Below, piece after piece: positions 390 to 39,542 of a DNA stretch of 39,809 bases. The stretch spans positions 7,883 through 47,691 of the forward strand of contig PFTO01000166.1 of NCBI GenBank assembly GCA_002789615.1. The letters are read 5' to 3'. The position numbers and the translations under genes are program-made. The stretch's first letter is position 1, and every line of letters begins with the position of its first letter. Origin of the DNA: Acidobacteria bacterium CG_4_9_14_3_um_filter_49_7 (GTDB lineage: Bacteria; Acidobacteriota; Holophagae; Thermotomaculales; Thermotomaculaceae). Below the pieces are notes generated by a model. The model was not told the origin of the DNA. It saw only the letters and a list, made by a program, of their open reading frames with translations, and did not search any database.

Positions 390-405
390 GTGTTCTGTGT
401 TCTGA
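390..405 (+). repeat. GTGTTCT x2 tandem heptamer (gtgttctgtgttctga); inverted copy of the TCAGAACAC core at 505-516
   Basis: Read directly from the sequence. 394-405 (tctgtgttctga) is the exact reverse complement of 505-516 (tcagaacacaga). Confidence 0.9.
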
Positions 406-501
406 AAGAAAGAAAAGAGGAGATGGGATCGTAATTTCAGGTAATTTCCAAACTATACCGCATTGATCCATTCTTGAATCTGATTCTCTCGCGTCTTTTT
501 C

Positions 502-540
502 CGGTCAGAACACAGAAAGCTGAACACTGAACACCTCTTT
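502..540 (-). repeat. TCAGAACAC-family intergenic element; minus strand reads AAAGAGGTGTTCAGTGTTCAGCTTTCTGTGTTCTGACCG
   Basis: It starts 1 nt after the stop of the minus-strand NifS-SelD gene. 520-540 is identical to 39522-39542 (21/21). 502-513 (cggtcagaacac) is identical to 10957-10968. Confidence 0.9.
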
Positions 541-541
541 A

Positions 542-2758
542 TCATTCATCATTCTTCACCCGTATCCGTCCACTTCCCGACACGAATCGGCCGATTTTTG
601 CGGCCGATTTTACCCCGGCGGATTTCAATGCAGCGACCAGCCTGTCCCCATCCGGCTCCGTCACGGCTATGAGGAGGCCACCTGAGGTCTGCGCGTCAGA
701 TAAGAGCAGGCGCTCCGTCTGGGGTATTTTCTCATCCCAATCCACACTGTTCTTCACATAAGCGAGGTTGTTCCGGGTACCGCCGGGAATCACGTCTGCC
801 ATGGCCAAATTCCGGACACCGGGGAGAATCGGCACTGCCTGCGACCAGATTTCCCCATCTACTTTTCCGTCGGTTATCATTTCAGAGAGGTGGCCCAGAA
901 GACCGAAACCGGTGACATCGGTACAGGCGTGAATCGCAAACGCCACCATTGTTTCGGCTGCCTTTTGATTCAGTTCTGCCATTGCTTCCACCGCAGGGGC
1001 AAAAGCCTTTTCGTCTATGGCACCCTGTTTCAAAGCCGTGGCGAGAATCCCAGTCCCGATGGGCTTGGTCAACAGCAGTGCGTCACCGGGTTTTGCCCCC
1101 GAGTTGGCCAGTATGCGATCCGGATGCACTGTTCCCACCACCGCCATCCCGAATTTGGGTTCACTATCATCAACAGAATGGCCTCCAAGAATACAAATCC
1201 CCGCTTCTTTTGCTTTGGCAGTTGCCCCCGCCAGTATGCGATCCAGCACGTCCACCGGCAGCCGGTCCACCGGAAAGCCTACAATATTCAACGCAAACAA
1301 CGGCTTACCGCCCATGGCGTAGATGTCGGACAGAGCGTTGGCGGCCGCTATGGCGCCAAACTGGAACGGATCGTCCACCACAGGTGTGAAGAAGTCTACG
1401 GTGGCGACCAGCGCGGTGTCGTCGTTTAGCCTGTAAACGGCTGCGTCATCTGTGGTATCCGCCCCCACAAGCACGTTGGGGTCGTCCGGAACCGGCATCT
1501 TTTTCAGAATGGCTTCCAGTACCTGGGGTTGAATTTTGCACGCGCACCCCATTCCACGGGTAAACCGGGTCAGACAAACCTTTTCTCCAGCCTTCGTTGG
1601 GACTTTCACGGTATCGCCATGGGGTTGGAGAGTTCGAACCGCTTCAAGAATTTCATCTGCCGCCTGGTCAATTTCACCCGTGGACGTCATCCGTCCGGTG
1701 GAAAATCGAACGGTTCCCATGGCATATTCCACCGGCACTCTCATGGCTTCCAGCACCGAGGACACGTCCACTCTGTCTGTGTGGCAGGCCGCCCCGGCAG
1801 AGGCCGCAACTCCTGTCAGCTCCGAAAGGAGCGTATTGGCTTCTACCCCCCGAAAGGAAATACTCAAGGTATTGGGTAGACGGTCAGTCGAATGGCCATT
1901 CACCCGGCACTCTTGAACTCCTTCCGTCAGCCTGTGCTCCAGCCTGTCCCTGAGTGCTGCCGAGTGGGCCATATCTTCTTCAAGACGGGCCATCGCCAGT
2001 TCACAGGCCTTTCCCAGCCCGGCAATTTCCAGGATGTTTTCGGTTCCGGCACGAAATCCCCGTTCGTGGTCTGCACCGTGAACTAGTTTTTCCAGCTTCA
2101 CGCCGCTTCGGATATATAGGGCTCCGATTCCCTTTGGTGCGTATAGTTTGTGTCCGGCAACAGACAGAAGATCCACCCCCGATTCATCCACATGAACCGG
2201 AATTTTACCCACTGCCTGAGCCGCGTCCGTGTGCAGGAGAACGCCCCTGTCATGGGCCAGTTTCGCGATTTTCCCAATAGGCTGAATCGTACCCACTTCG
2301 TTATTTGCCGTCATGATCGTGATGAGAGTTGTCTGTGGTGTAATGGCAGTTTCCACATCATCCACGGAAACCATCCCGGTCTCATCAACCGGCAATACGG
2401 TGACCCGGAATCCGTTTTTTTCCAGGAAACGACAGACCTCCAGAACTGCCGGATGCTCCACTGCGGACGTGATGATATGGTTTCCTCTTTCCCGGTACGC
2501 GAACGCTGCCCCTTTGATGGCATAATTGTTGGATTCGGAGCCGCCGCTGGTAAATACCACTTCGTCAGGCCGACACCTGATTAACGCAGCCACCTGCCGC
2601 CGGGCTATTTCAACCGCATGCTTCGCTTCCATGCCGAAAGAATGGGAACTGGATGGGTTCCCGAACACGCCGTCAAGGAAGGGGCGCATAACTGCCGCAA
2701 CCGCAGGGTCAATGGGAGTTGTTGCGTTGTAATCGAGATAAATCGGTTTATTTTTCAT
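542..2758 (-). CDS. selD: fusion protein: NifS/IscS-like PLP-dependent cysteine desulfurase / selenocysteine lyase (N-terminal) plus selenophosphate synthetase SelD (C-terminal)
   Basis: 738-aa ORF. The N half carries class V aminotransferase/NifS hallmarks (IYLDYNATTP, SGGSESNN, SVAGHKLYAPKGIGALY). The C half is SelD (GMGCACKIQP glycine-rich loop, DDAAVY, VDFFTPVVDDPF, DIYAMGG, TDVTGFGLLGH, SGGLL). The SelD catalytic residue is Cys (TGC at 1546-1544), not TGA/Sec. Confidence 0.9.
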   Translation of the reverse strand: MKNKPIYLDYNATTPIDPAVAAVMRPFLDGVFGNPSSSHSFGMEAKHAVEIARRQVAALIRCRPDEVVFTSGGSESNNYAIKGAAFAYRERGNHIITSAVEHPAVLEVCRFLEKNGFRVTVLPVDETGMVSVDDVETAITPQTTLITIMTANNEVGTIQPIGKIAKLAHDRGVLLHTDAAQAVGKIPVHVDESGVDLLSVAGHKLYAPKGIGALYIRSGVKLEKLVHGADHERGFRAGTENILEIAGLGKACELAMARLEEDMAHSAALRDRLEHRLTEGVQECRVNGHSTDRLPNTLSISFRGVEANTLLSELTGVAASAGAACHTDRVDVSSVLEAMRVPVEYAMGTVRFSTGRMTSTGEIDQAADEILEAVRTLQPHGDTVKVPTKAGEKVCLTRFTRGMGCACKIQPQVLEAILKKMPVPDDPNVLVGADTTDDAAVYRLNDDTALVATVDFFTPVVDDPFQFGAIAAANALSDIYAMGGKPLFALNIVGFPVDRLPVDVLDRILAGATAKAKEAGICILGGHSVDDSEPKFGMAVVGTVHPDRILANSGAKPGDALLLTKPIGTGILATALKQGAIDEKAFAPAVEAMAELNQKAAETMVAFAIHACTDVTGFGLLGHLSEMITDGKVDGEIWSQAVPILPGVRNLAMADVIPGGTRNNLAYVKNSVDWDEKIPQTERLLLSDAQTSGGLLIAVTEPDGDRLVAALKSAGVKSAAKIGRFVSGSGRIRVKNDE

Positions 2759-2766
2759 GGTCCTGC

Positions 2767-3348
2767 CTATTTCTGAAGTTTTTCGGCAAAGGTCGTCAAG
2801 AGTCCGCCGAGTTGCTCCGCCTTAGCGGCGAGACGGCTGTCTGTCAGTTTTCCTTCGGGGGAAAACACCTTGTGGGCGTGAGGAACCGCCACTTGCTCCG
2901 GAATCACCATTACCTGGAGGTTGGACAACAGCGTCCTCAGGTGCTGCAGACCCCGAACGCCCCCCAGTCCGCCGGGGGAAGCTGCCATGATGGCCGCGAC
3001 CTTACCCTTGAACGGAACCGGCGGGTTCTCCTCTGCAACGGGTCGGGACAACCAATCCAGCGTATTTTTCAACACACCGGAAAAAAAGCCGTTGTACTCC
3101 GGCGAGGCAATCAGAAAACCGTCTGCCTCGGCGAACAGCGCCTTCAGGCGGATTGCCGCTTCCGGAATGCCCTCCACCGTCTCCAGGTCACCATCGTACA
3201 GGGGCATGGGAAAATAATTCAGATGGATTTCTGTCACACGGGCACCCCTGGCCGACGCACCCTGAATGGCGTTGGAAAGCAGCATGCGGTTGAAAGAATC
3301 CGCCCTTGTACTTCCGCTGAAAGCCAGAAAGTTTATTTCGTGGTTCAT
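2767..3348 (-). CDS. NAD(P)H-dependent FMN reductase family oxidoreductase
   Basis: 193-aa ORF with AAGGAG RBS. The N-terminus FLAFSGSTRADSFN plus SPEYNG are typical of the FMN_red family. Its stop lies only 8 nt upstream of the NifS-SelD start, so it is likely co-transcribed. Confidence 0.8.
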   Translation of the reverse strand: MNHEINFLAFSGSTRADSFNRMLLSNAIQGASARGARVTEIHLNYFPMPLYDGDLETVEGIPEAAIRLKALFAEADGFLIASPEYNGFFSGVLKNTLDWLSRPVAEENPPVPFKGKVAAIMAASPGGLGGVRGLQHLRTLLSNLQVMVIPEQVAVPHAHKVFSPEGKLTDSRLAAKAEQLGGLLTTFAEKLQK

Positions 3349-3379
3349 TGCTTTCTCCTTTTCCAGGTATCGGTCGGCC

Positions 3380-4594
3380 TCAGTATATGCGGGGCGGTGT
3401 GTAGTCGGTTTTCGGGTTGACTTTTACTCCATATGAACTGCTCCAGAGATCGGCAAAGAGCTTGTCCAGTGTTTCCGCAATATTCCGGTCTTTGATTACG
3501 AGTTCCAGGTTTCGGGATGAATAGAAATAATCGTAGCCCCAGTTGCTGGTGCCCACCCAGCAGACATCATCGTCCACCCGCATTACCTTGGAATGGATCA
3601 CCCGTGCGTAGGGGATGAATCCTTCTTTTGATGGCGGAATCGTCACAAACTTAATGGTAATCCCGGGTACACCGGCCAGGGATTTTAAGTCGGCAATCGC
3701 CGGTTTCCGTTTATTCCAGTCGGATACCATCATTTGAATTCGGACACCTCTTGCAGCAGCGGCACGAAGGGCGTTGTCAATATCAAGAAACCGTGTTTTT
3801 GAACGATGACGGTAGGTCGAATAGGTGAGTAGCTGAATGGTAATCTTCTCTTTCGCCCCCCTGATAAGGTTCAGCAATTCCGGCAATGCCGAGTCAATCC
3901 CCGGCGGATTGGTTTTCCCCGGGCTTGCCACCAGCTGGAGCTTCTGGGAAAAATGAATCGGTTTCAGCTTCTTCAATTCCCGGTAGGCACCCGTATCTCC
4001 ACCTGAAAAATTCCAGTCCCCATTGAAAATCTCTGAAATTCCATCAACTACCGCAGGATCGGTAACCTTCACACCGGTTTCGTGAATATGTTTCAGGGAC
4101 CGCCAGTCAAAGTTCTGGCTACCTATGTATGCGGACGTCCCATCCACGACAAAATACTTGCCATGGAGTACTCCCCCGGTAAACTTTCCCCAGTCGAAAA
4201 TTCTCACGGGGATTTTCGCCTTGCGAAAACCGTCAATCAGGTCAACGGAATTCTTCTCCATCTTTTTATCTGTGAGAATCCGAATGGACACTCCCCTTTT
4301 TTTTGCCTGCAAAACGGCATTGACCACTCGCTTCAGCGGCATCTTGTCGCCACCGTTGAGATAAAATTCTCCGAAATCCAGTGTCTTTTCAGCGCCATCA
4401 ATCATTTTCACCCAGGTGTCCACGGCAGAGGGTGTAATTCCCCGCTTCAATGCAGTCTCCACTGGAATTGTCGTCACCACGGTGACAGAACTGAGGTGCT
4501 TTGCCGGGATCGGGACCGTCCCCGCTGACAGCCATATTGTTGATATCCCCAGCCACAGAAACAGGCTTTTCTTCAACAAGCTGGCAAACTTCAT
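3380..4594 (-). CDS. secreted phospholipase D-family protein (two HKD motifs)
   Basis: 404 aa with an N-terminal signal-like segment (MKFASLLKKSLFLWLGISTIWLSAG). Two HxK(x)4D motifs are present: HGKYFVVDGTSAYIGSQNF and HSKVMRVDDDVCWVGTSNW. GGAGGA RBS. Confidence 0.85.
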   Translation of the reverse strand: MKFASLLKKSLFLWLGISTIWLSAGTVPIPAKHLSSVTVVTTIPVETALKRGITPSAVDTWVKMIDGAEKTLDFGEFYLNGGDKMPLKRVVNAVLQAKKRGVSIRILTDKKMEKNSVDLIDGFRKAKIPVRIFDWGKFTGGVLHGKYFVVDGTSAYIGSQNFDWRSLKHIHETGVKVTDPAVVDGISEIFNGDWNFSGGDTGAYRELKKLKPIHFSQKLQLVASPGKTNPPGIDSALPELLNLIRGAKEKITIQLLTYSTYRHRSKTRFLDIDNALRAAAARGVRIQMMVSDWNKRKPAIADLKSLAGVPGITIKFVTIPPSKEGFIPYARVIHSKVMRVDDDVCWVGTSNWGYDYFYSSRNLELVIKDRNIAETLDKLFADLWSSSYGVKVNPKTDYTPPRIY

Positions 4595-4764
4595 ATCTTC
4601 CTCCAGAATTGCTCTTCCATATCACAATAACTACCACGAACCGCTACTATTGTCAAAGACTGGAGAGTATTTGCAAAACTGAATCAGGGCAAGGAATTTA
4701 CCCATTTCAACTCAACATCTGTCACCCTTCATCCTTCGCCTTTTATTCATCTTGAGTTTTCCTC

Positions 4765-4792
4765 TTGACAGTAGAGAGAAGATGGCTATAAT
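4765..4792 (+). promoter_or_regulatory. sigma70-type promoter for the initiator tRNA (TTGACA-16 nt-TATAAT)
   Basis: Consensus hexamers at 4765-4770 and 4787-4792, about 14 nt upstream of the mature tRNA 5' end. Confidence 0.6.
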
Positions 4793-4805
4793 AGGTATCC
4801 GGTGA

Positions 4806-4882
4806 CGCGGGGTAGAGCAGTCAGGTAGCTCGTCGGGCTCATAACCCGGAGGCCGTGGGTTCAAATCCCACCCCCGCTACCA
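4806..4882 (+). tRNA. initiator tRNA-fMet (anticodon CAU), CCA encoded
   Basis: A 77-nt cloverleaf was folded by hand. Acceptor CGCGGGG/CCCCGCT with an unpaired 1:72 position, D arm GAGC/GCTC, anticodon arm TCGGG-CTCATAA-CCCGG with three consecutive G:C pairs, T arm GTGGG-TTCAAAT-CCCAC, then A73 and CCA. It is close to the E. coli tRNA-fMet sequence. Confidence 0.92.
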
Positions 4883-5010
4883 ATTTTCAAATGCAACGCT
4901 CCTGAAGAGTGGGGTTTTTTGTCTTTGGTACAGGTTTTCTTGACGCCGGGACAATTGCTGTGATACAGTCAAACGCTGTGTGATGAGATTTCGAGGGAGG
5001 ATTTTGGAAC

Positions 5011-5322
5011 ATGTACGCAATAGTAGAAACCCAGGGCAAGCAGCATAAGGTAATCGAAGGCCAGATTCTCATCGTTGACCGGTTGCTGGCAGATGAAGGC
5101 AGCACCATTGATTTGGAAAAGGTAAGGCTGCTGGGAAAGGACGACAGTGTAGAAGTTGGTACCCCGTATGTGGATGGTGCCAACGTTACAGCCAAAGTCC
5201 TGGAACACAAAAAAGGCAAAAAGGTTCTTGTGTTCAAGAAGAAAAAACGGAAACAGTATAAGCGGATGAAAGGTCATCGCCAATTGCTGACTGTTTTGAA
5301 AATTGAAGGAATCAAGGGGTAA
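5011..5322 (+). CDS. rplU: 50S ribosomal protein L21
   Basis: MYAIVETQGKQHKV... is the canonical L21 N-terminus. 103 aa with a GAGGGAGG RBS. Confidence 0.95.
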   Translation: MYAIVETQGKQHKVIEGQILIVDRLLADEGSTIDLEKVRLLGKDDSVEVGTPYVDGANVTAKVLEHKKGKKVLVFKKKKRKQYKRMKGHRQLLTVLKIEGIKG

Positions 5323-5325
5323 GTA

Positions 5326-5586
5326 ATGGCTCATAAGAAAGGACAGGGAAGTTCCCGAAACGGCAGAGACAGTAACGCCCAGCGACTCGGCGTGAAACGC
5401 CAGGACGGCCAGCTGATCAATGCCGGGACCATTATTGTTCGCCAGCGTGGTACCCATTTCAAACCGGGTGAAAACGTTGGCCGTGGCAAAGATGACACGT
5501 TGTTTGCATTGTCTACCGGCGTTGTCCGCTTCCGTGACCGGGGCCGACTCGGCAAATATGTAACCATAACAGAAGCGCTTCACTAA
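5326..5586 (+). CDS. rpmA: 50S ribosomal protein L27
   Basis: [24 protein letters not shown] is the canonical L27 N-terminus. 86 aa. Confidence 0.95.
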
Positions 5587-5606
5587 TTCTGTTTTCTTGA
5601 CCTATT

Positions 5607-5634
5607 GGGGGGCCTAGTGCCCCCCTTTGTTGTT
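5607..5634 (+). terminator. intrinsic terminator/attenuator after rplU-rpmA
   Basis: GGGGGGC (5607-5613) / GCCCCCC (5619-5625) form a 7-bp GC stem with a 5-nt loop, followed by TTTGTTGTTT. Confidence 0.75.
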
Positions 5635-5647
5635 TCAGGCGGTTTTT

Positions 5648-6721
5648 ATGTTTGTAGATGAAATGAAAATGATTATCCAGGCGGGCAGCGGCGGGAACGG
5701 CTGCATGAGTTTCCGACGGGAAAAGTATGTTCCAAAGGGCGGTCCTGATGGCGGAGACGGCGGAGACGGCGGAAACGTGATTTTTGAAGGCCATGCCGGC
5801 ATGAACAGCCTGACCCGCTTGCGCCAGCGCCAGCACTACCGTGGGGAAAGAGGTGAACACGGCAAAGGGAAGGACATGCACGGACGAAACGGCCTCCCCT
5901 GTATCGTCAAGGTCCCCATTGGCACAATTGTGCGGGACGCGGAGACTGCAGAACTACTGGCTGAAATCCTCGAAGATGGCCAGCAGGTTGTGATTCAGAA
6001 AGGCGGGAGAGGGGGAAAGGGAAACGCACGGTTCTCCTCCGCAACCAACCGGGCTCCCCGGTATTCTGAAGATGGCCATCTGGTTGAACCCATTGCCATC
6101 CGGCTGGAACTGAAACTGATCGCGGATGTGGCCCTGGTGGGCTATCCAAACGCCGGGAAATCCACACTTATTTCCCGCATTTCCAGCGCCAGGCCAAAGG
6201 TAGATGAGTATGAATTCACGACGCTTCACCCCAACCTGGGTGTCGTGTCTTATGATGATTTCAAGTCTTTTCTCGTTGCGGACATCCCTGGCCTGATTGA
6301 AGGGGCCGCTGAAGGTCGGGGACTTGGAATCAAATTTCTTCGCCATATTGAACGAACCCGCATTCTCCTCCATCTACTGGACGGGGCAACGCCACACGGC
6401 TCACTGGTCGAGGAATTCCAGACCATTCGGGAAGAGGTGAAGAAGTTCAATCCCGACATGCTGAATCGCCATTTTGCCGTCGCAGTAAACAAGATGGACA
6501 GCCTTGGTTCCCAGGATGAACTGGAAGAAATCAGTCAATTCTGCCGGGAAAATCAGATCCCGCTTTTCCGAATTTCAGCTGTGACTGGAGAGGGGCTTGA
6601 AACATTGGTACAAGAACTGGGACACATGGTTGAGTCCTCCCGGCCGGCTCCCACAACGAGAGAGTTAATACAGCCAAAGGAAGAGCCAGGCCTGAAGAAC
6701 GATTTTCTGAACGAGGTATAG
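5648..6721 (+). CDS. obg: GTPase Obg/CgtA
   Basis: MFVDEMKMIIQAGSGGNGCMSFRREKYVPKGGPDGGDGG is the Obg fold N-terminus. G motifs GYPNAGKST and DIPGLIEGA are present. I prefer the ATG at 5648 over the track start at 5627, which overlaps the terminator hairpin. Confidence 0.95.
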   Translation: MFVDEMKMIIQAGSGGNGCMSFRREKYVPKGGPDGGDGGDGGNVIFEGHAGMNSLTRLRQRQHYRGERGEHGKGKDMHGRNGLPCIVKVPIGTIVRDAETAELLAEILEDGQQVVIQKGGRGGKGNARFSSATNRAPRYSEDGHLVEPIAIRLELKLIADVALVGYPNAGKSTLISRISSARPKVDEYEFTTLHPNLGVVSYDDFKSFLVADIPGLIEGAAEGRGLGIKFLRHIERTRILLHLLDGATPHGSLVEEFQTIREEVKKFNPDMLNRHFAVAVNKMDSLGSQDELEEISQFCRENQIPLFRISAVTGEGLETLVQELGHMVESSRPAPTTRELIQPKEEPGLKNDFLNEV

Positions 6722-7348: not shown

Positions 7349-7350
7349 AC

Positions 7351-8134: not shown

Positions 8135-8137
8135 ACC

Positions 8138-10712: not shown

Positions 10713-10740
10713 GAGTGGAAGGTAAGGTTGAGGTTGAGTG
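10713..10740 (+). repeat. G/T-rich hexamer tandem repeat (GGTAAG GTTGAG GTTGAG) 13 nt after the ruvC stop
   Basis: Read directly: gagtggaaggtaaggttgaggttgagtg. Confidence 0.85.
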
Positions 10741-10832
10741 CCGGATACTTTTCGGGAAAGACAGAAAACCGGATACAACTGATTCTTTTCTACGCCGACA
10801 CGAAAAACGCCCACGGAGGAGGCCAGAATTCA

Positions 10833-10856
10833 ACACAAAGTCACAAAGACACAAAG
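10833..10856 (-). repeat. 8-mer tandem repeat x3 (plus strand NCACAAAG; minus strand CTTTGTGN)
   Basis: acacaaag tcacaaag acacaaag. G/T-rich on the minus strand, which is the sense of the EAL gene that ends at 11014. Confidence 0.85.
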
Positions 10857-10956
10857 GTCAGATAAAATTAAGAAAAAAATGAGGTACGGACAAGATTCAG
10901 AAGGGACGTGGAATCGCAAACTCCCTTGCTTTCCTGCTCCCACGCCCATTCTTATT

Positions 10957-11000
10957 CGGTCAGAACACGGAACACAGGTGCCGGAGGCGCACAGAACACT
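10957..11000 (-). repeat. TCAGAACAC-family element (three GAACAC cores) directly 3' of the EAL gene
   Basis: cggtcagaacacggaacacagg...cagaacac. It shares the 12-mer cggtcagaacac with 502-513. Confidence 0.85.
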
Positions 11001-11013
11001 TCTATACACAACG

Positions 11014-17577: not shown

Positions 17578-17998
17578 AAGAATCCTCCTCTCTATTGTTG
17601 TTCTCATTCTATCACAGGTTTAAAAGGCAGGGTTGAGATTGAGCCTGTTTTTGAGACATGAGGACACCAGAAAAGACGCAAACTCATCAATGTCTCGTCA
17701 AATTCATTCCTACTTCCAGACCTTTATCTCCTTGCCTTTCCCTGTAGAGAATACCTCGCTGAGTTTCAATCTATTCATTCACAAAAAAGGGCGGTATAAA
17801 CCACCTTATAAGATATGAATACAATACTGAAAATCAGCGGACAGCCACAAAGCCCTGAAAAGAAGTTGCTTGTTTATTTGTTTTAGTTATGAAAGATCGC
17901 CCCACTCTATTTTTTTTGCGTCCCCACTTTCTCACTTCACAGCAATGTCTTTTCTGGTAGACTAAGATCATGAAGAAACGATTGAGAAGGAGGCAGAA

Positions 17999-19237
17999 AT
18001 GACTGCAAGAGAAACTGTTCGCCAATACTTTGAGAACCACCGGGATGAAATCCGGAAAACCATAGTGGATCTGACCCGGGAAATGTGCGCAGAAAAAACC
18101 GTGAATGTCGTTTCGGAAAAGCTGCCGGAATTTCCCTTTCTGAAAATCCGCGGAGAAGAATACCGGGTTGCGAAGATTGTGAAACGGGCAATGGATGAAG
18201 CCAAAATCCCTTACAACGAATACGCCAGGATGGAAGGCAGACCCAATATCATCGGATTACTGGGGAAAAATGCAAACGGGAAACGGCTGATGATACCGGG
18301 GCACATGGATGTGGTACCTGCCGGTGAGGGCTGGGACACCGATCCCTATGAGGTGATTGAAAAAGACGGTTTTCTCTATGGAAGAGGCGTGTTGGACAAC
18401 AAAGGTCCCCTTGCATCCATCCTTGCGGCCGCAATTGTACTAAAAGAAAGCGGCATTGACAATGAACTGGAAGGTCAGCTTCAGATTGCAGCGCTGTCTG
18501 ATGAAGAAGCGGAAGACCCGGACGGGATTGATTATGGAATCGGGTATCTCGTAGACGAAAAACTCGTGGATCCGACCATTTCGATCATTCCTGACATCGG
18601 AGAAAACATGGAGAGAATTGACATTGCCGAGAAGGGACGGACCCTGGTGAAGATTACGGCCATCGGGAAACAGGCCCACGGTTCTACGCCGGAGCTGGGC
18701 ATCAACGCGGTGTACATGATGTCAAAACTCATCAATGAGATTGAGCAACTGAAGTTTGAATACGAGTTGCATCCCGTTCTCGGTGAACCCTCTCTGAACT
18801 TGGGTGAAATCCACGGCGGTGCCGCTCCCAATATTGTGCCAGGGACCTGTTACATCTACCTGGACATCCGCACAGTGCCCGGAATGACAAAAGACAGCGT
18901 GTTAGCTCAACTCCAGGGCTGTGCGGATCGCGTTGTAGGCGGGAAGTTTGAACTGAATTGCATGTCCTGGAACGATGCCCACGGAGTGGATCCGGAAAAC
19001 GAGGTGGTGTATGCGATCCAGCGCAATGCAGAAGAGATCCTGGGATTCAAGCCGGAAACATTCGGAATGGGTGGCGGAACCTATGCCAAAACAATGAACC
19101 TCGCCGGCATCCTGGCAGTGGGCTGGGGTCCCGGAGACGACGAGGCGTATCATGTAGAAAACGAGTACGTTGAAATCAAACAGCTGGTGGACTTCGCTGA
19201 ATTAACCTGTCTTTTAGCCATTGATCTGCTCTCATAA
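17999..19237 (+). CDS. M20-family metallopeptidase (ArgE/DapE-like deacylase)
   Basis: 412 aa. Motifs HMDVVP, GRGVLDNKG and SDEE give the metal ligands and catalytic Glu pattern of M20. AAGGAGG RBS. Confidence 0.85.
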   Translation: MTARETVRQYFENHRDEIRKTIVDLTREMCAEKTVNVVSEKLPEFPFLKIRGEEYRVAKIVKRAMDEAKIPYNEYARMEGRPNIIGLLGKNANGKRLMIPGHMDVVPAGEGWDTDPYEVIEKDGFLYGRGVLDNKGPLASILAAAIVLKESGIDNELEGQLQIAALSDEEAEDPDGIDYGIGYLVDEKLVDPTISIIPDIGENMERIDIAEKGRTLVKITAIGKQAHGSTPELGINAVYMMSKLINEIEQLKFEYELHPVLGEPSLNLGEIHGGAAPNIVPGTCYIYLDIRTVPGMTKDSVLAQLQGCADRVVGGKFELNCMSWNDAHGVDPENEVVYAIQRNAEEILGFKPETFGMGGGTYAKTMNLAGILAVGWGPGDDEAYHVENEYVEIKQLVDFAELTCLLAIDLLS

Positions 19238-19241
19238 GAGA

Positions 19242-19280
19242 GTAGGAGTAGGAGTAGGAGTAGGAGTAGGAGTAGGAGGA
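19242..19280 (+). repeat. (GTAGGA)x6 + GGA perfect hexamer tandem repeat, 4 nt after the M20 peptidase stop
   Basis: Counted directly: six perfect units at 19242-19277. The artefactual VGVGVGVGVGVG in the track ORF 19221.. is its translation. Confidence 0.95.
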
Positions 19281-19406
19281 AGACCGGGAAATGAACAGGC
19301 AATTGTTCGGGCTGAAAAGCTCTCGGCAGGGGCTGGCAAATCAGCCATTCCCTGTCTTTTCTTCACCCAACCTTGCCTTCTGCTCAACCTCAAACCTGGC
19401 CCCAAA

Positions 19407-20303
19407 ATGAGTAACACAGCAATCTCTTCGTTCATCAATTATCTCATTGTGGAGAAGGGATTATCCGCCAACACCATTGAAGCGTATCGGAACGACATCG
19501 TGTTGTTCCAGAATTTTCTGGAACTGGAAAATGTGGACATGGTGTCTGTGGGGGAGGAAACAGTTACCCGCTATGTGGCTTTTCTCTTCAATGCGGGATA
19601 TTCCCCCCGTTCCATCATGCGGTTCAGTTCCAGCCTCCGCCACCTCTACCGCTTCATGGCGGAAGAGGGAATGATTCCGGAAAATCCCACAGACATACTG
19701 GAAACACCCCGGGCATTTCGCCTGCTACCGAAGTATCTGACCGATGGAGAAGTGGAAACCCTGTTGTCGCTGCCGGATGTGGAAACGCCGCTGGGCCAGC
19801 GGGACAAGGCTATAATTGAGCTGTTGTACGCCACCGGCCTTCGGGTATCGGAACTGATCAACTTGAAGGTTAACGACCTGAACATGGCCGATTGCTTCCT
19901 CATTACCTTCGGAAAAGGGGCAAAAGAACGACTGGTACCATTCACCGACACCGCCCGGAACTGGGTGGAACACTATTTGAACGATGGGCGGATTGCCACT
20001 TTGAAAGGGAAAGACAGTTATGTACTTTTTCTAAACCGTTTCGGAAACGCCCTGACCCGACAGGGGTTCTGGAAAATCCTGAAAGCTTATGGCAGAAAAG
20101 CCGGCATTGGGGACAAACTCTCTCCCCACACCCTGCGCCATACCTTTGCCACCCACCTGTTGGAACACGGAGCGGATCTCCGGGCTGTACAGATGATGCT
20201 GGGGCACTCTTCCATCACAACCACAGAAATCTACACCCACATCAGCATGGATAGGCTGAAACAGGTCTATTTCAAATTTCATCCCAGAGCAAATGAAGAA
20301 TAG
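19407..20303 (+). CDS. xerD: site-specific tyrosine recombinase XerD
   Basis: Starts MSNTAISSFINYLIVEKGLSANTIEAYRNDI. Catalytic signature ATGLRVSEL ... HTLRHTFATHLLEHGADLRAVQMMLGHSSITTTEIYTH. The true start is the ATG at 19407, not the TTG at 19221. Confidence 0.9.
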   Translation: MSNTAISSFINYLIVEKGLSANTIEAYRNDIVLFQNFLELENVDMVSVGEETVTRYVAFLFNAGYSPRSIMRFSSSLRHLYRFMAEEGMIPENPTDILETPRAFRLLPKYLTDGEVETLLSLPDVETPLGQRDKAIIELLYATGLRVSELINLKVNDLNMADCFLITFGKGAKERLVPFTDTARNWVEHYLNDGRIATLKGKDSYVLFLNRFGNALTRQGFWKILKAYGRKAGIGDKLSPHTLRHTFATHLLEHGADLRAVQMMLGHSSITTTEIYTHISMDRLKQVYFKFHPRANEE

Positions 20304-32883: not shown

Positions 32884-32889
32884 AAAAAT

Positions 32890-32918
32890 ATCATAATAAA
32901 CCCAAAGAGATCAGTCAA
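32890..32918 (-). promoter_or_regulatory. candidate promoter of the Fur-family gene (TTGACT-17-TATGAT), placing the start site at or next to the ATG
   Basis: The hexamers lie on the minus strand at 32918-32913 and 32895-32890. Only 6 nt separate the -10 from the ATG at 32883, and no SD is present. Confidence 0.4.
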
Positions 32919-32961
32919 GAGGAAGCATGTTTAAATAAGAGCAGGTACAATTTATTTTAGA

Positions 32962-33888
32962 TCAACTTCCATACAGGCCGGAGCTTAAGTAGCGCTCTCC
33001 TGTGTCCATGATCATGACCACAATTCGTTTACCCGCATTCTCGGTTCGTTTTGCCACTTCGAGTGCCGCCCAGACAGCCGCACCGGAGGAAATCCCAGCC
33101 AAAATACCTTCCAGACGGGCCAGTTTTTGGGCTGTTTCAAATGCGTCTTCATTTTTTACCCGAATTACCTCGTCAATAATATCCCGATTCAAAACAGCGG
33201 GGAAAAAACCGGCGCCAATTCCCTGAATTTTGTGGGGGCCAGGCTGACCGCCTGAAAGAATCGCCGAGTCTTCCGGCTCCACTGCAACTGTTTTGAATTC
33301 CGGATTTCTCTTCTTCAGTTCCTCAGAAATGCCGGTAATGCTGCCGCCGGTGCCGACACCATCTACCAGAATGTCCACCTTTCCCTCCGTGTCGTTCCAG
33401 ATTTCAACAGCCGTATTTTCCCGATGGGCAGCGGGATTTGCCGGGTTCTCAAATTGCTGCAGAATCAAAGCTCCGTCAGTGTTTTCCACAATTTCGGTCG
33501 CCTTCTCAATAGCGCCCTTCATTCCCTTTGCGCCGTCGGTGAGCACCAGCTTCGCGCCCAGCGCCTGTAACAAGGCTCGGCGTTCAACACTCATGGTGTC
33601 CGGCATGGTGAGTATAAGATTGTATCCTTTTACCGCCGCCACCCAGGCCAACGCAATGCCGGTGTTTCCTGACGTGGGCTCCACAAGCACCGTATTTCCC
33701 CTGATTTTTCCTGCCCTTTCAGCCGCTTCAATCATTGAAACACCGATTCTGTCCTTGATACTGCTTCCGGGATTGGTAAACTCCAGCTTGGCCAACACTT
33801 CGGCCACTGATCCTTCGGTAATCCGGTTCAACCGTACCAGCGGTGTATTCCCAGTTAATTCAATGAGATTATTGTAAATGCGTGTCAT
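32962..33888 (-). CDS. cysK: cysteine synthase A (O-acetylserine sulfhydrylase)
   Basis: 308 aa. Motifs NPGSSIKDR (PLP lysine), [10 protein letters not shown] and GTGGSITG. Confidence 0.95.
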
Positions 33889-34153
33889 GGTTTTCTCCTG
33901 ACTAATTCGTTTTGTTGATAAAGTTTTTTAAATGAATGGATTGGATAGCATGGATCGTATGGGTCAGGGGCGACAGGTGCAGCTCGAAATGAAGATTGCA
34001 ACCCGTGTGGCGAGTTCTGGTATCTCATTTCGGACAGAAACCTCCCAAAATGCGCAATTGTCCCGGCTTCGACTGCTAATCTTTTCTGAAACCTTGCAGA
34101 AACCTGGACGTGAAGAATATTTCAACTGGCACTCCTTGTGCATTTCCATTGGA

Positions 34154-34182
34154 ATGATATGTGAACACGCTCGCCTTGTCAA
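34154..34182 (-). promoter_or_regulatory. strong sigma70-like promoter (TTGACA-17-TATCAT) about 265 nt upstream of cysK
   Basis: The hexamers lie on the minus strand at 34182-34177 and 34159-34154. I found no better promoter closer to cysK. Confidence 0.45.
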
Positions 34183-34345
34183 GGAATACTTCACAAAAAA
34201 GAAAAGTTTCCGATACACTCCTGCCTCAAGTCCGCCCCCTCCGACTTTCGAAGTTATTTCCCTTTGGGGGGTTCTTCTTTCTTACCGATCTTGTTGTTCG
34301 CAAGTCTGGCATTCCACCGTTTTGCCCATCTATCAAATGAATCCC

Positions 34346-34869
34346 TTAGTGACGCGGCACAACTGAACCAAATATGACGAAACGGACAGAAAACGCCTCT
34401 CTTGCCTCAGATGACGACTTTCCTTCCATGGCCACCTGCCACATGGCCGCTCCCAATGCAGCCCGGTCCGCACCGGATTTGCAGTGGATCAAAACCGGCT
34501 TCGGCACCTTCTTGAAGAATCTCACCAGTTTGTCCAGCATGTCCGGTGAAGCTGGCTTGCTTGCGGAAAGACCAAAATTGTAGTGTTCAATGTGTAACTT
34601 ACGACATGCAACGACCTCTTCCTGGTACCATCTCCGTTCCGGAACCTTGCTTCGAAGGTTGATGACTGAACGGATGCCATATTTGGCCGCATATTGGGCC
34701 ATGTGCTCTGGTCTGACCTGACCGGATCGATAGGCAACGCCGGGGGTAATCGCGTGGAAGTTGTCGCCAATGAGAAGGTGGGCAAACCATCCGACTGAAC
34801 AAAAAACATGAAGACGACAAGAATGAAGAGGCTCTTGAACACCCTTCGGGCCAAGTCAGATTTTGACAT
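34346..34869 (-). pseudogene. membrane-anchored protein tyrosine/dual-specificity phosphatase (HCx5R) interrupted by a frameshift in an A6/T6 run
   Basis: Frame 1 (ATG 34869) gives MSKSDLARRVFKSLFILVVFMFF. After the T6 run (plus strand A6 at 34801-34806) the homologous sequence continues in another frame: CSVGWFAHLLIGDNFHAITPGVAYRSGQVRPEHMAQYAAKYGIRSVINLR...HCKSGADRAALG. One extra T would restore a 174-aa ORF. The downstream frame has no canonical start before M at 34702. Confidence 0.7.
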
Positions 34870-35151
34870 GAACGCTCCTTTTTTGTCAGGCCATGAGTGT
34901 GAAAATGTTTGGGAAAAAACGATAAAGCACGCCTCAGTGCGAAGCTGCATAATTTTCCAAATGGCCAATGCTTAACCTATTCTATGAGTGTTTTTCGATT
35001 CTGTAAAGGAATATGCGAGTCTATGCCAGTCAAACAGCACATCTCCAAAACCTTCACTGCCATCCATCCTTTCAACTCATACACATCCTGATAGCCAACT
35101 CCCTCATCTCATGACGAAATTGCCGGGAACCATTGTTCGTACAGGAAACTT

Positions 35152-35922
35152 CTAACCCTTTTGGTAGGAACCCTGAATTTGATTTTTGTATTTCTTTCTG
35201 TTCCAGACAAATTTCAGTTTCACGGCATTGACCTTGCAGGATTCAATGCATTTTCCGCAGAGAATACATTCGGAATTCGTTATCAGCCCCTTGTTGTTTT
35301 TTATGTAATCAAGCATCGGGATTCGCAAAAGACAATCCTGTTCACATTTTCCGCAGCCCGTGCATTTTTCCACATCAACCACGGGGATAAGGCGCGAGTG
35401 ATGAGCACCTGCTGCACATAAAGTACCCATGAGGCACAGATTTCTGCACCCCCATCTTCGATCAAGCAAAAGCCCGAATATGACAGCCAGTGAAACATCA
35501 ACCATCCACGCAATCTTATAGTGCATACTGAAATCAAGTGCAAGAAAGGAAGGGATGACAGCAAAATTATGGGTGATCCCTTTCCCGGAATTCACAACAT
35601 AGAAAGCGATTGCGGAAGCGAAAAAAAGGATCAGGATCAGCAATCTCACCCATGTCTTCGGCTTGTTCCATTTTGTGGCTCTACTGGCGTGCCGACTTGA
35701 CAGATCGTAAGCCGTTCCCATAAAGCAAAACCAGCCGCAACCGATTCTTCCAAAAAGTGGTGTAATCAGGATAAACCCCATCCAGACGAGTACAACGAAT
35801 GTAACAACCCCCCAATATATTGAATGCCAGATGAAACCGAATGCAAAATACTGGAAGAAAACAGGCGTCAACAACAGAAAAACAATTCTGGAAACAGCGT
35901 TGAGTGAAAATAGTCGCTTCAT
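35152..35922 (-). CDS. membrane-bound polyferredoxin (NapH/MauN/CcoG-like 4Fe-4S binding protein)
   Basis: 256 aa, several TM helices. Motifs GRIGCGWFCFMG and RRWGCRNLCLMG, plus two ferredoxin motifs CTGCGKCEQDC and CILCGKCIESC. Confidence 0.75.
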   Translation of the reverse strand: MKRLFSLNAVSRIVFLLLTPVFFQYFAFGFIWHSIYWGVVTFVVLVWMGFILITPLFGRIGCGWFCFMGTAYDLSSRHASRATKWNKPKTWVRLLILILFFASAIAFYVVNSGKGITHNFAVIPSFLALDFSMHYKIAWMVDVSLAVIFGLLLDRRWGCRNLCLMGTLCAAGAHHSRLIPVVDVEKCTGCGKCEQDCLLRIPMLDYIKNNKGLITNSECILCGKCIESCKVNAVKLKFVWNRKKYKNQIQGSYQKG

Positions 35923-36177
35923 ATTACAACAGTCCTTATTTAAATTGGATGGTTAGCTTCAGGTGACATAAACGCACGATACCACTGCTCAAGTGATCGG
36001 AAAGATTCTTCCGATAGGCCCCTCTCTTACTTGAGTGTCAATTCGATTCCACAGATCATACGAGGACTCGCAAAGGAATGTTTCCACTGGCGTTACTGTA
36101 AGTTCAGCCCCCACAACATTCTTTTTTCTCTTCTCTCGTCAACTGTCACACGTCATTCCCTTTCCCTCACACTCTCG

Positions 36178-36222
36178 CACTCATCACTCATCACTCATCA
36201 CTCATCACTCATCACTCATCAC
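36178..36222 (-). repeat. heptamer tandem repeat, six full units (plus strand TCATCAC; minus strand GTGATGA), flanked by TTCCC-type pyrimidine tracts
   Basis: Counted directly at 36181-36222, plus a partial unit at 36178-36180. It lies in the divergent intergenic region between the polyferredoxin gene and ilvE. Confidence 0.95.
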
Positions 36223-36381
36223 TTCCTTCCCTTCCCTTTGAATCCGGGCCGGTTCAATGGTAGAATGAGTTGAAATTGATTTGAATCCACTGAGCGAATG
36301 ACATGATCATGCTAAGATCCAAAAACTTTTCAACGGGGGCCCCGCTGATTGGGGCAATCGCTCTCACAAACAGGAGGAAAC

Positions 36382-37302
36382 ATGTTTCGACCGGACCTTA
36401 AGATCTGGATGAACGGTGAATTTGTCAATCTGGAAGACGCAAAAGTCAGCATCCTATCCCACGCGCTTCACTATGGGAGTTCCTTTTTTGAAGGGATCCG
36501 TTGCTATGAAACCAAGACCGGGCCGGCGGTTTTCCGCCTGAAGGAACACACTGACCGTCTATTTAATTCCACTAAGATGTACCGAACGGAAATCCCCTTT
36601 ACCCGGGATGAAATCAATGACGCCATCCTCGAAACGATCCGCGCCAACAACATGAAATCATGCTATATCCGACCCCTTGTGTATCGGGGGTTCAAGACAA
36701 TGGGGGTCAATCCCTTTCCCTGCCCCGTGGAAGTGATGATAGCAGTGTGGGAATGGGGTGCGTATCTCGGACCGGAAGCACTGGAAAAAGGCGTGGATGT
36801 CAAAATCAGCACCTGGACAAAACTGGCACCCAACACCATGCCCACAATGGCCAAATCCGGTGCGAATTATATGAATTCACAGCTCATCAAAATGGAAGCA
36901 ATCGTCGACGGTTATGATGAAGGTATCTGCCTCAACACCCGTGGGCATGTTTCTGAAGGAAGCGGGGAAAACATCTTCCTGCTGAAAGACGACAAACTGC
37001 ACACCCCCCCCTACTCCGAATCAATGCTCCCGGGCATTACCCGAAATTCCGTTATTCGGATCGCAGACGAAGCCGGCATCCCGGTTGTGGAGACAGCCAT
37101 TCCCCGTGAATGGCTGTACATTGCAGACGAAATTTTCTTCACCGGAACCGCGGCTGAAATTACCCCCATTGCTTCAGTAGACCGTATTGCCATTGGAAGT
37201 GGCAAGCGCGGTCCGGTTACAAAAATGATCCAGGATTCCCTCTTTGGAATCTTGAACGGAGAGCTGGAAGACAGATTTAACTGGCTGACCCCGGTTTTGT
37301 AA
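36382..37302 (+). CDS. ilvE: branched-chain amino acid aminotransferase (class IV)
   Basis: Motifs [30 protein letters not shown] and GITR. The ATG at 36382 follows AGGAGG; the track start at 36349 is a TTG. Confidence 0.93.
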
Positions 37303-37332
37303 ATCGACTCATAACATATGAGGAGGTCGTCA

Positions 37333-37851
37333 ATGAACAGAAAACAGATGTTCACACTTTCCCTGGCAATCCTTACACTGCTTCTTACTCCCCAGCTTGC
37401 AGCTACGGAGCCTGCCTCGACTCTGGCTCCGCTGATACCGCTTTCGGGGAAATGGGTGAGAAGGGGAGAAGGAACGAATGGGCCATCCGTTGTGAAGCAG
37501 GTCTTTGCCTTTGCACTGGGTGAAAGCCATTTCGTGAGCAAGACAACGGCTCGGTTCAAACCAAAGGATGGAGAAAAGACAGGTCAGCTTCGAGAATCAG
37601 CCGGTTTCTTCAGTTATGACCCCGCAGAAAAAAACATCCTGTACCGGGAATTTACTTCCGATGGCCAGGTAAATCGCTACAAACTGCAAAAGGTTTCCAA
37701 AGACGGGATGACGATTACTTTCCAAAACGACAAGGGAAATGGAAATCAAGCAGAAAATCAAACCCGGTTGATTTTCCAGCTAGCAAACCAGAGCAATCTG
37801 CAGGTGATCTTCTCCCAATCCCCGGGTGGTAAAACCTTCACACCGGTCTAA
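37333..37851 (+). CDS. hypothetical secreted protein
   Basis: Signal-like N-terminus MNRKQMFTLSLAILTLLLTPQLAA, with GAGGAGG 6 nt upstream of the ATG at 37333. No family recognised. Confidence 0.55.
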   Translation: MNRKQMFTLSLAILTLLLTPQLAATEPASTLAPLIPLSGKWVRRGEGTNGPSVVKQVFAFALGESHFVSKTTARFKPKDGEKTGQLRESAGFFSYDPAEKNILYREFTSDGQVNRYKLQKVSKDGMTITFQNDKGNGNQAENQTRLIFQLANQSNLQVIFSQSPGGKTFTPV

Positions 37852-37959
37852 ACTATCCAAATGAGGCGGGTAAAGCTAAAGAAGAAGAATTGGGCTCGTC
37901 GAGAGATGAAAAACAAAGATGCTTCTGCAGACTTAAATTAGAACCATGGAGAATCAGAA

Positions 37960-39435
37960 ATGAAGATAAAACGCCTGGTATTTGTTGTTTTCTCGCTTTG
38001 CATTCTCTTTCCTCTCCCGGCCAATGAACCGGTTGGATTTGATCATTTTTTTGAAAATGCAACCCTTCGCGTAGACCTGATTCATATCGGGGACAAAACA
38101 TCAGAATTGTACGCGGTTGACCGCATGTACAAAACACCGGTCTGGGCCGGCTCCCCAGCCCATGTAATTGACACCTTTAATAACGGACGCTATTTCATCA
38201 GGGTTTTTGACAGCGTAAGCGGAAAACTGATTTTTTCCCGGGGATTCAACTCAATCTTCGGGGAGTACGCCACGACAAAACCCGCTGCCAACGGAATCAA
38301 ACGGGCCTTCCCTGAAACCGCATTAATTCCCTTTCCCCGGAATCCTGTTCGCCTGACCATCAGTGCCCGTAACCGGGACAACTCCCTGAAAGAGATTTTC
38401 CGACAGGAAATCGACCCGAAAAGCGTGGACATTCTCCAGCTTAAAAAAAATGAGGACGTGGAGATTATACCCATTGCCGGAAACACCAATCCCCACCACT
38501 CTATGGATCTGGCAATTGTGGCAGACGGTTATACCGGGGCGGAACGGAATAAAGCAGTATCTGATGCAAAGTATTTTGCCGCCAAACTGCTGAACATGGC
38601 CCCTTATAATCGCTATCGCAATCATATCAACATTGCCCTTGCGTTTCGTCCGTCGCCCGACAGCGGGTGCACAGAACCGACCCGGGGCATTTACAAACGA
38701 ACGGCGGTGAATGCTTCATTCAATTCACTGGGCCTGCCCCGATACCTCCTCACCGAAGACAACCGGGACCTCCGGGATATTGCCGGTGCGGTTCCCTACG
38801 ATATTGCGGTGGTGATGGTCAACAGTCCCCGCTACGGAGGCGGCGGCATCTACAATTTTTTCTGCGTTTTTACCGCGGACAACCCCTATCGGAACTATGT
38901 CTTTCTCCACGAATTCGGCCACGCATTCGCCGGCCTGGCTGACGAATACTATTCTTCCGCTGTTACTTATGATGACTTTTACCCCAATGGAGTGGAACCG
39001 CTGGAACCCAACATTACCGCGCTCATAGATTCAAACCACTTGAAATGGAAAGAACTGGCCAGCCCCGGTGTTTCGATTCCGACATCATGGGGGAAAGCGG
39101 AATATGACAGCCAGAATCTGGATTATCAGAAAAAGCGTCGCCTTCTGGACGGCAAAATAGCAAAACTGACCCGGGATGGCGCATCGGCTGATCAAATCAG
39201 GGAGTTGAAAGCACGTGCAGCCAAATTGTCGGCACAAAACGGTACATGGGTGAATCAATTCTTCGCGAATAATCCGGAAAGAGACAAAGTCGGCGCATTT
39301 GAAGGGGCCGGCTACATTCCAGAGGGATTATATCGGCCCCAGCTTGACTGCATCATGTTCAGCAAGGGAGAAAAGCCCTTCTGCAAGGTCTGCGCAGCGG
39401 CCATCGCCGCAAGGCTCCGCTTCTACATCGAATAA
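37960..39435 (+). CDS. M64-family (IgA-peptidase-like) zinc metallopeptidase, secreted
   Basis: 491 aa with a signal peptide. HEFGHAFAGLADEY zinc motif within the typical M64 context (PRYGGGGIYN upstream). Confidence 0.85.
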   Translation: MKIKRLVFVVFSLCILFPLPANEPVGFDHFFENATLRVDLIHIGDKTSELYAVDRMYKTPVWAGSPAHVIDTFNNGRYFIRVFDSVSGKLIFSRGFNSIFGEYATTKPAANGIKRAFPETALIPFPRNPVRLTISARNRDNSLKEIFRQEIDPKSVDILQLKKNEDVEIIPIAGNTNPHHSMDLAIVADGYTGAERNKAVSDAKYFAAKLLNMAPYNRYRNHINIALAFRPSPDSGCTEPTRGIYKRTAVNASFNSLGLPRYLLTEDNRDLRDIAGAVPYDIAVVMVNSPRYGGGGIYNFFCVFTADNPYRNYVFLHEFGHAFAGLADEYYSSAVTYDDFYPNGVEPLEPNITALIDSNHLKWKELASPGVSIPTSWGKAEYDSQNLDYQKKRRLLDGKIAKLTRDGASADQIRELKARAAKLSAQNGTWVNQFFANNPERDKVGAFEGAGYIPEGLYRPQLDCIMFSKGEKPFCKVCAAAIAARLRFYIE

Positions 39436-39441
39436 CAGTGG

Positions 39442-39470
39442 GTAGGAGTAGGGGTAGGGGTAGGGGTAAG
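39442..39470 (+). repeat. (GTAGGR) hexamer tandem repeat: GTAGGA GTAGGG GTAGGG GTAGGG GTAAG, 6 nt after the M64 stop
   Basis: Read directly. Same unit family as 19242-19280. Confidence 0.95.
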
Positions 39471-39513
39471 AAAAGACAGGGACTTATCTATTTCCTCCCT
39501 TTATCCCCCTCTT

Positions 39514-39542
39514 TCAGAACACTGAACACTGAACACCTCTTT
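39514..39542 (-). repeat. TCAGAACAC-family element (plus strand tcagaacactgaacactgaacacctcttt), 9 nt 3' of the rsgA stop
   Basis: 39522-39542 is identical to 520-540. Heptamer GAACACT/GAACACC x3. Confidence 0.9.

Follow-up and report, generated by a model that had tools for sequence, protein, structure and literature searches.

Why should short tandem repeats lie beside bacterial genes in one strand orientation, and is that orientation a property of stop codons? The question is raised by a 39,809-nt stretch of DNA from Acidobacteria bacterium CG_4_9_14_3_um_filter_49_7 (assembly GCA_002789615.1, contig PFTO01000166.1, positions 7,883 to 47,691; hereafter the window), whose intergenic spacers carry tandem arrays of short units that are G/T-rich on one strand and C/A-rich on the other. 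A first-pass annotation had described the arrays as lying just after stop codons, at places where hairpin terminators are absent, six of them 1–13 nt after the stop with the G/T-rich strand being the sense strand of the gene just ended, and had proposed a genome-wide scan for stop-codon and strand bias as a test. Repeats were located with Tandem Repeats Finder (TRF) and by direct reading of the sequence; the listed arrays were recovered at, or a few bases from, the positions given for them, and the scan of the genome holding the window (G000) revealed a very strong bias. The observation is sound and the statistic behind it strong, but the reading of the arrays as stop-specific replacements of hairpins does not hold.

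G000 is a fragmented metagenome-assembled genome (MAG) of 2.11 Mb in 215 contigs (88% complete), and it was analysed whole. TRF yielded 180 intergenic arrays with a period of 6–8 nt, counts at contig ends being underestimates. Heptamer arrays were found 101 times in intergenic and 35 times in coding DNA, although 82% of the genome is coding, and 65 hexamer arrays were intergenic. The 225 kb of N-free spacers contained 143 arrays of period 6–8, whereas ten shuffles that preserved dinucleotides averaged 11.2 (∼13-fold); at a score of at least 40, there were 55 arrays in the real spacers and none in the shuffled ones.

Of the 47 arrays no more than 30 nt from a stop codon, 46 had the G/T-rich strand as their sense strand (p = 7e-13), and the ratio was 38:1 when only high-confidence genes were used. 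Scored for the G-rich strand, the sense orientation prevailed 46:0 within 30 nt and 58:6 within 60 nt of stops. At starts the orientation was reversed relative to the gene: within 60 nt, the G/T-rich strand was antisense in 24 of 28 arrays (G-rich strand: antisense 23, sense 6). A count made without TRF, of GTG trinucleotides in the 60 nt after stops, gave a spacing of 7 nt in 81 cases and of 6 nt in 35, against 5 for CAC at either spacing. When two arrays of opposite composition shared a spacer, the order on the plus strand was G/T-rich followed by C/A-rich 21 times and the reverse twice. Overall, 100 arrays were oriented away from the nearest gene and 20 toward it. The polarity was present in each of the four gene arrangements, divergent pairs among them, the density of arrays was alike in convergent, tandem and divergent spacers, and polarity was 83% in perfect, recently expanded arrays and 84% in decayed ones. 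The rule is that the G/T-rich strand runs 5' to 3' away from the nearest gene end, be it a stop or a start. Since the outward polarity is also found at starts, the description of the G/T-rich strand as the sense strand of the ended gene is correct at stops and captures only the stop-side half of the rule. One of the few exceptions to the polarity was seen at G000:C203:13455-14267, where a G/T-rich and a C/A-rich array enclose an open reading frame (ORF) for a lipoprotein-like protein of 211 residues, as if the gene lay in the middle of a module.

The heptamer units include GTGTTCT, GTGATGR, GTGGATR, GTGACTT and GTGATTT, and the hexamer units are mainly AGTTTR, GTTGAG, GTAGGA and GTGGGC; the repertoire can be summed up as mostly GTGNNNN heptamers plus RAGTYT, GTWGGN and AGGTTR hexamers. 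GTG was found on the G/T-rich strand of 80 of 100 heptamer arrays, compared with about 30% expected from composition, and CAC in none. Runs of G are missing from the dominant units GTGTTCT, GTGATGR, GTGACTT and AAGTTT and are present only in GGGTAG, TGGGGAT and GCGTGG; because most units are devoid of G-runs, the formation of G-quadruplexes cannot explain them. No stop codon occurs within GTGTTCT, the unit met most often, and a role as back-up stop codons was set aside for that reason, with no formal count made. At the end of one contig (G000:C23:1-113) an inverted pair of (TGGGGAT)5 and (AATCCCC)8.6 was found; the unit belongs to the GGGGATT type described in Nostoc, which is capable of forming G-quadruplexes.

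The anatomy of the spacers was drawn from all stop-side cases and all divergent spacers of G000. The end of a gene is followed by, often, a small GC hairpin (loop of 3–4 nt), by the G/T-rich array and by AAAGA with a purine-rich arm (consensus around AAAGACAGGGAAT); beyond a loop come a pyrimidine-rich arm ending in TCTTT, the C/A-rich array, sometimes another small hairpin, often a promoter, and the next gene. In the base profiles, the arrays are followed by ∼20 nt with 75–80% purines (AAAGACAGGGAA) and then by a pyrimidine-rich stretch. The module reads alike on both strands, and the strand that runs outward from a gene end therefore always carries a G/T-rich array, at stops as at starts. 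Start-side arrays were located 10–30 nt upstream of promoter-like −35/−10 boxes in 13 of 36 cases, compared with 21% of controls (p = 0.04); in the window, the array at 36178-36222 lies 15 nt upstream of the promoter-like TTGAAT-17-TAGAAT (36238-36266) of an aminotransferase IV gene. Stop and array are commonly separated by a small GC hairpin. The loop of one post-stop hairpin appears inverted in place: the hairpin reads TTCCGCCACAGGCGGAA at G000:C142 (∼2135-2157) and is the exact reverse complement, TTCCGCCTGTGGCGGAA, at locus L167 of the related genome G002.

Folding of the window spacers did not bear out the absence of hairpin terminators. In the predicted fold of 19238-19411, a strong hairpin followed by TTTTCTT occupies 19325-19363; long imperfect stems form at 362-541, where the two GTGTTCT arms pair, and at 39436-39547, where the (GGGTAG) array provides the 5' half of a stem of ∼25 bp. 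The convergent pairs ruvC/EAL and M64/rsgA had been described as carrying one array per gene and no canonical hairpin, and each gene does have its own array. The pairs xerD/katG and cupin/rbr have hairpins without repeats, as annotated, but no either/or relation exists genome-wide. Terminators were predicted by simple means, with a strict and a looser definition of hairpins, and neither count supported arrays as alternatives to hairpins in the genome at large. Under the looser definition, array-bearing spacers held terminator-like hairpins (74–89%) at least as often as other spacers in every gene arrangement; the strict count is given below. The pairing of an arm is better with the partner in its own spacer than with arms taken from others. 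Most arm pairs are from different families, and a description of the arrays as simple inverted repeats was rejected.

The arrays of the window are collected in Table 1. The distance of 1–13 nt from the stop holds for the M20 and M64 peptidase genes (4 nt each), the NifS-SelD gene (1–7 nt) and the rsgA-like gene (9 nt), and is exceeded at ruvC (20 nt) and EAL (14 nt). The array at 17631-17643 is start-adjacent, its G/T-rich strand being antisense to the Band7 gene.

Table 1. Arrays and associated hairpin in the window. Positions are those of the window; G002, G004 and G005 are genomes from the same genus.
Feature	Position	Strand	Context
(GTGTTCT)2+GA array	390-405	+	distal arm of spacer 279-541; pairs with 505-520 in the predicted fold
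GTGTTCAGTGTTCAGCTTTCTGTGTTCTGA, G/T-rich GTGTTCW array	505-540	-	1-7 nt after the NifS-SelD stop (542-544)
GGTAAG GTTGAG GTTGAG array	10721-10738	+	20 nt past the ruvC stop; kept in G004 with one copy fewer
(ACACAAAG)3 / (CTTTGTGN)3 array	10833-10856	-	within a ~180-nt stretch missing at the orthologous G004 site
GTGTTCT-GTGCGCCTCCGGCAC-CTGTGTTCCGTGTTCTGA module: heptamers with embedded small GC hairpin	10960-10999	-	14 nt after the EAL stop
GGTTGAGATTGAG	17631-17643	+	23 nt outside the Band7 gene (minus strand), on its start side
(GTAGGA)6	19242-19277	+	4 nt past the M20 peptidase stop
Terminator-like hairpin GGCAGGGGCTGGCAAATCAGCCATTCCCTGTC, then TTTTCTT	19325-19363	+	between the two arms of the M20/xerD spacer
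C/A-rich arm (CACCCAACCTT..CTCAACCTCAAACC)	19364-19396	+	just upstream of the xerD ATG at 19407; kept in G002, G004 and G005
(CACTCAT)6.6 = (GTGATGA)6.6 on the minus strand	36178-36222	-	divergent spacer
(GGGTAG)4.8	39440-39470	+	4 nt past the M64 peptidase stop; pairs with downstream CCTCCCTTTATCCCCCTC in the predicted fold
(GTGTTCA)2 GTGTTCTGA	39514-39542	-	9 nt past the rsgA-like stop (39552-39554); (GAACACT)3 at 39514-39536

Among the neighbouring genes, the NifS-SelD fusion, RuvC, EAL, Band7, M20 peptidase, XerD, KatG, M64 peptidase and a ferredoxin-like protein are backed by Pfam matches. The rsgA-like fragment has no Pfam match; it ends at 39552-39554 with a cysteine-rich C-terminus, as expected. 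A scan of the window against Rfam 15 at the gathering score returned only a tRNA (4806-4879) and no family at any array locus. Alignment with five congeners places the start of xerD at 19407, past the repeat, the hairpin and the C/A-rich arm; the long ORF calls starting at 19221 or 19293 are artefacts, and the M20/xerD spacer thus measures 169 nt and contains the hairpin at 19325-19363. The plus-strand ORF 2..361, adjoining the repeat at 390, has the look of a shadow ORF. On the minus strand of the same DNA, a 21-codon ORF (MYNLNVVGGTANTFRFIRFVR, 268-333) precedes the ORF 3-278, which starts at 278; the nucleotide sequence is conserved in G004, and a gene for a small peptide accompanied by a partner enzyme is one possibility.

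The conservation of the arrays was assessed in samples of 300–400 kb from the congeners G002, G003 and G004, and of 302 kb from the congener G001. The first three share unit families and polarity (37:5); no such array was found in the 302 kb of G001, nor was an array with polarity found in the sample from the sister genus G007. Dispersed copies of the window modules number dozens in G000 and G002-G005, among them ∼45-nt copies of the module at 10960-10999, and G001 gave matches to genes only. The contigs of G002-G005 often end in these repeats.

A gene end of G000 carried an array in ∼40% of cases if the orthologous gene end of a relative had one and in ∼2% otherwise, with odds ratios of 27–40 that overstate the significance, the kin not being independent. 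The positions are kept while copy number and unit vary. At the site after the M20 peptidase gene, (GTAGGA)6 has 2–4 copies in relatives and is replaced by (GTGTTCT)4 in G003. The unit at the EAL stop is GTGTTCT in G000 and GTGAAAG-like in G004, and that at the NifS-SelD stop is GTGTTCA or GAGTTT, depending on the species. The same was seen within a 98%-identical gene (GTGATGR versus GTGTTCW) and between conserved flanking hairpins (GTGGATA versus GTGATTA). Replacement in place is what a concerted change of the units by slippage would give. The ruvC/EAL spacer shows a larger difference: the ∼220 nt at 10789-11008, with two arrays, correspond to ∼40 nt at G004:C11:22954-22994, although the flanking genes are 94–96% identical in DNA, and no target-site duplication was seen at the edges of this ∼180-nt indel.

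In the phylum, heptamer arrays are common yet patchy, being present in about one third of 301 sampled Acidobacteriota genomes. Five GTGs in a 7-nt phase were found in 103 of these genomes, and a GGT-phased control pattern in 98, with up to >2000 matches in one genome. GTG as a phylum-wide invariant was rejected on this basis; as the GGT control is as frequent, the GTG theme is limited to the genus of G000. The polarity is met in samples from distant Acidobacteriota as well, 73:9 in G114 and 15:5 in G190. In the spacers of G114, arrays number ∼2.6 per kb, and AGGGATG, GGGTTCA, GTGGTTA and AGTCAGT are among their units.

The polar intergenic arrays are almost certainly members of a class of repeats described before in Xanthomonas, Nostoc and the STRR-type (short tandemly repeated repetitive) sequences of cyanobacteria. 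STRR sequences, reportedly described by Mazel et al. in 1990, are said to be tandem 7-nt units dispersed in the non-coding DNA of heterocystous cyanobacteria; tandem 7-nt units are what they have in common with the arrays of G000, from which they differ in unit and phylum. The statement that no described element matches the arrays is contradicted by Rehm et al. (2015; PMC4692102), whose GGGAATC and GGGGAYT heptamers in Xanthomonas and Nostoc PCC 7120 are strongly intergenic and share the polarity relative to ORFs. Those heptamers lie nearer to the 5' neighbouring ORF whatever its orientation: in the 50 bp past a stop they occupy the coding strand, and in the 50 bp ahead of an ORF the non-coding one. 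They differ between close relatives, have no link to phase-variable genes and no known function, and their G-quadruplexes were stressed (PMC4692102). Shared with the arrays described here are the tandem heptamers (2 to >20 copies per array in the class) that are dispersed and over-represented in non-coding DNA, a G-rich strand that is sense past stops and antisense before ORFs, and the variation in length and sequence at the same loci between close relatives. The G-quadruplex potential of that class (G-tracts and a preference for four units) is not a trait of most units here; in addition, many unit families coexist, hexamers are found too, divergent spacers are not depleted, and the host is a Holophagae-labelled lineage of the Acidobacteriota.

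Other repeats bear a partial likeness. The TAACTGA direct repeats of Beggiatoaceae, cyanobacteria and Bacteroidetes, for which S1, cold-shock proteins (Csp) and CsrA were proposed as binders (MacGregor 2015; PMC4679880), are also abundant intergenic heptamer arrays near gene ends, but they consist of one unit and lie mostly a few nucleotides upstream of starts, whereas most arrays here hug stops and those on the start side tend to sit upstream of promoter-like boxes. According to a preprint, heptamer repeats affect the expression of recF and recO in Nostoc. Small GC-rich hairpins near stops, often as inverted pairs in spacer mosaics, are shared with repetitive extragenic palindromic (REP) sequences and bacterial interspersed mosaic elements (BIME), including the REPINs (REP doublets forming hairpins) with their REP-associated tyrosine transposase (RAYT); here, tandem 6–7-mers are the main component and matches to Y1 transposases do not co-occur with arrays. 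A conserved GTAG head, which in REP/BIME belongs to an imperfect palindrome of 20–40 nt, was not noticed, though no systematic search for it was made. With bidirectional intrinsic terminators (A-tract, hairpin, U-tract) many modules share, at their centre, a hairpin of purine and pyrimidine arms flanked by AAAGA and TCTTT; they differ in that an array is not in itself a hairpin and that the hairpin at the centre is in many cases weak.

We favour a reading in which the arrays are arms, driven by slippage, of modules that would act on outgoing transcripts as bidirectional terminators or insulators, and we assign it a probability of roughly 40%. Its descriptive part, that the arrays are slippage-prone, centre-directed outer arms around a purine/pyrimidine hairpin at the boundaries of transcription units, can be stated with great confidence. 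Its functional part, an action in cis on transcription leaving the gene, as part of a bidirectional terminator or insulator, is put forward tentatively and is doubtful as it stands. On the descriptive side, slippage creates and remodels the arrays, with all units of an array changing together, so that copy number, and even the unit, differs between species while the position persists. The target of the proposed action would be outgoing transcription, either sense read-out or divergent antisense. A G/U-rich tract just 5' of the A-tract, hairpin and U-tract could help the terminator or insulator, either by pairing with the opposite arm, G-U pairs being tolerated, and so lengthening the stem, or by recruiting a protein that binds single-stranded RNA. 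The roles suggested in the first-pass annotation, an aid to termination, a protein-binding module of the 3' untranslated region or rut-like (Rho utilization) sites on the C/A-rich strand, are all conceivable.

Several observations weigh against this reading. Under the strict definition, a hairpin with a T-tract follows 27% of stop-side arrays and 38% of other stops, a difference that is not significant. Weak central hairpins are frequent. The families of the two arms match in only about a third of the pairs, which makes each arm largely a module of its own. Any function of the arrays is dispensable, as G001 and the sister genera manage without them, and genes for RNA-recognition motif (RRM) proteins, the candidate binders considered below, are present in array-free G001 too. 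Finally, the genes were called with our own crude ORF-based model (1747 genes, 82% of the genome).

A function may not be needed at all if the arrays are slippage products, microsatellites that arise anywhere in spacers and survive beside genes only in a harmless orientation, that is, without GTG/TTG starts or Shine-Dalgarno-like runs before genes and without a C-rich Rho-loading tract or an open frame after stops. The rapid turnover of copy number and unit between species, the congener G001 entirely without arrays, the patchy phylum-wide distribution with lineage-specific units and the published cases that yielded no function are in keeping with such an origin. We nevertheless consider it somewhat unlikely, since the polarity is equal in perfect and decayed arrays, a bias of 46:1 would require strong selection, and the positions of arrays are kept across species; moreover, a filter on stop codons is not general, as there is no stop codon inside GTGTTCT, nor on either strand of the Xanthomonas unit (unit as given in PMC4692102). 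The polarity could also stem from the C/A-rich strand, if rut-like Rho loading sites stop untranslated transcripts that enter genes by read-through or as antisense from the 3' side. A rut site is a C-rich, G-poor unstructured RNA of ∼60–80 nt with YC dinucleotides. The composition of the C/A-rich strand fits such a site, the polarity provides every gene-entering transcript with a G-poor, C/A-rich unstructured tract, and Rho is present in all 14 relatives searched, which also led us to reject the loss of Rho as the cause of the arrays. The tracts are only 15–45 nt long, though, and AGAACAC, the commonest unit when read in this direction, is devoid of a YC dinucleotide. Together with the same polarity (PMC4692102) in cyanobacteria, which are reportedly Rho-less (PMC12642595), this makes rut-like sites very improbable.

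The arms might, alternatively, belong to mobile or formerly mobile hairpin inserts (a MITE [miniature inverted-repeat transposable element], REP/BIME or a gene-less cassette), the polarity being inherited from terminal inverted repeats. The dozens of dispersed copies of the ∼45-nt GTGTTCT-hairpin module in G000 and G002-G005, but not in G001, speak for this, as do the contigs that break at repeats, the ∼180-nt difference between G000 and G004, and some arm pairs (C64, C92, C10, C187) that share internal sequence in either orientation. We judge it unlikely. Matched left-right (inverted) GTGTTCT pairs number 10, compared with 203 solo ends, the arms within a spacer are usually of different families, units are replaced in place between conserved flanks, and no target-site duplication was seen. 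Matches to Y1 transposases do not track the arrays either, and a link to RAYT/Y1 transposases was rejected, as PF01797 had no match in array-bearing G003 and G004 and had one in array-free G001. Neither these transposases nor the presence of Rho tells the rival explanations apart. Genes for the 23S rRNA intervening-sequence protein (PF05635) number 3 each in G002, G003 and G004 and were not found in the contigs of G000, and array-free G001 has one; among the ORFs enclosed by array pairs in the samples, none looked PF05635-like by eye, with no Pfam scan made.

If a protein binds the arrays, a cold-shock protein is not a candidate, since no match to the cold-shock domain (CSD; PF00313) was obtained in the nine genomes searched of G000's family. 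Each of these nine genomes has 1–3 small RRM_1 proteins, an example of a small RRM gene being that at G000:C43:3747-3959; the three genomes searched of the sister family f2 have 3 CSD matches each and no RRM. Small RRM proteins as binders of the arrays may be treated as a lead only, as array-free relatives have them too. A more general idea, which we regard as quite improbable, is a bacterial 'boundary code' in which periodic G/U-rich units of 6–7 nt on gene-leaving transcripts would be read by a multimeric or cooperative single-strand RNA-binding protein, possibly small RRM proteins in this lineage, where no CSD proteins were found. If true, the reader protein would ensure termination or insulation where bidirectional terminators are weak, and the same polarity across Acidobacteriota, Xanthomonas, cyanobacteria and Bacteroidota would be explained regardless of the unit or its capacity to form G-quadruplexes.

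In several phyla, polar heptamer arrays sit at many gene boundaries. In the genus of G000 they also break the short-read assemblies of MAGs. Our analysis adds a rule that is centred on the spacer rather than on stop codons, and the finding that arrays stay in place as the sequence of the unit is replaced. That the polarity holds for units incapable of forming G-quadruplexes weakens the sole published structural explanation. The array-free G001 and the array-rich G000 and G002-G005, in one genus, provide a natural comparison in which to find the responsible factor.

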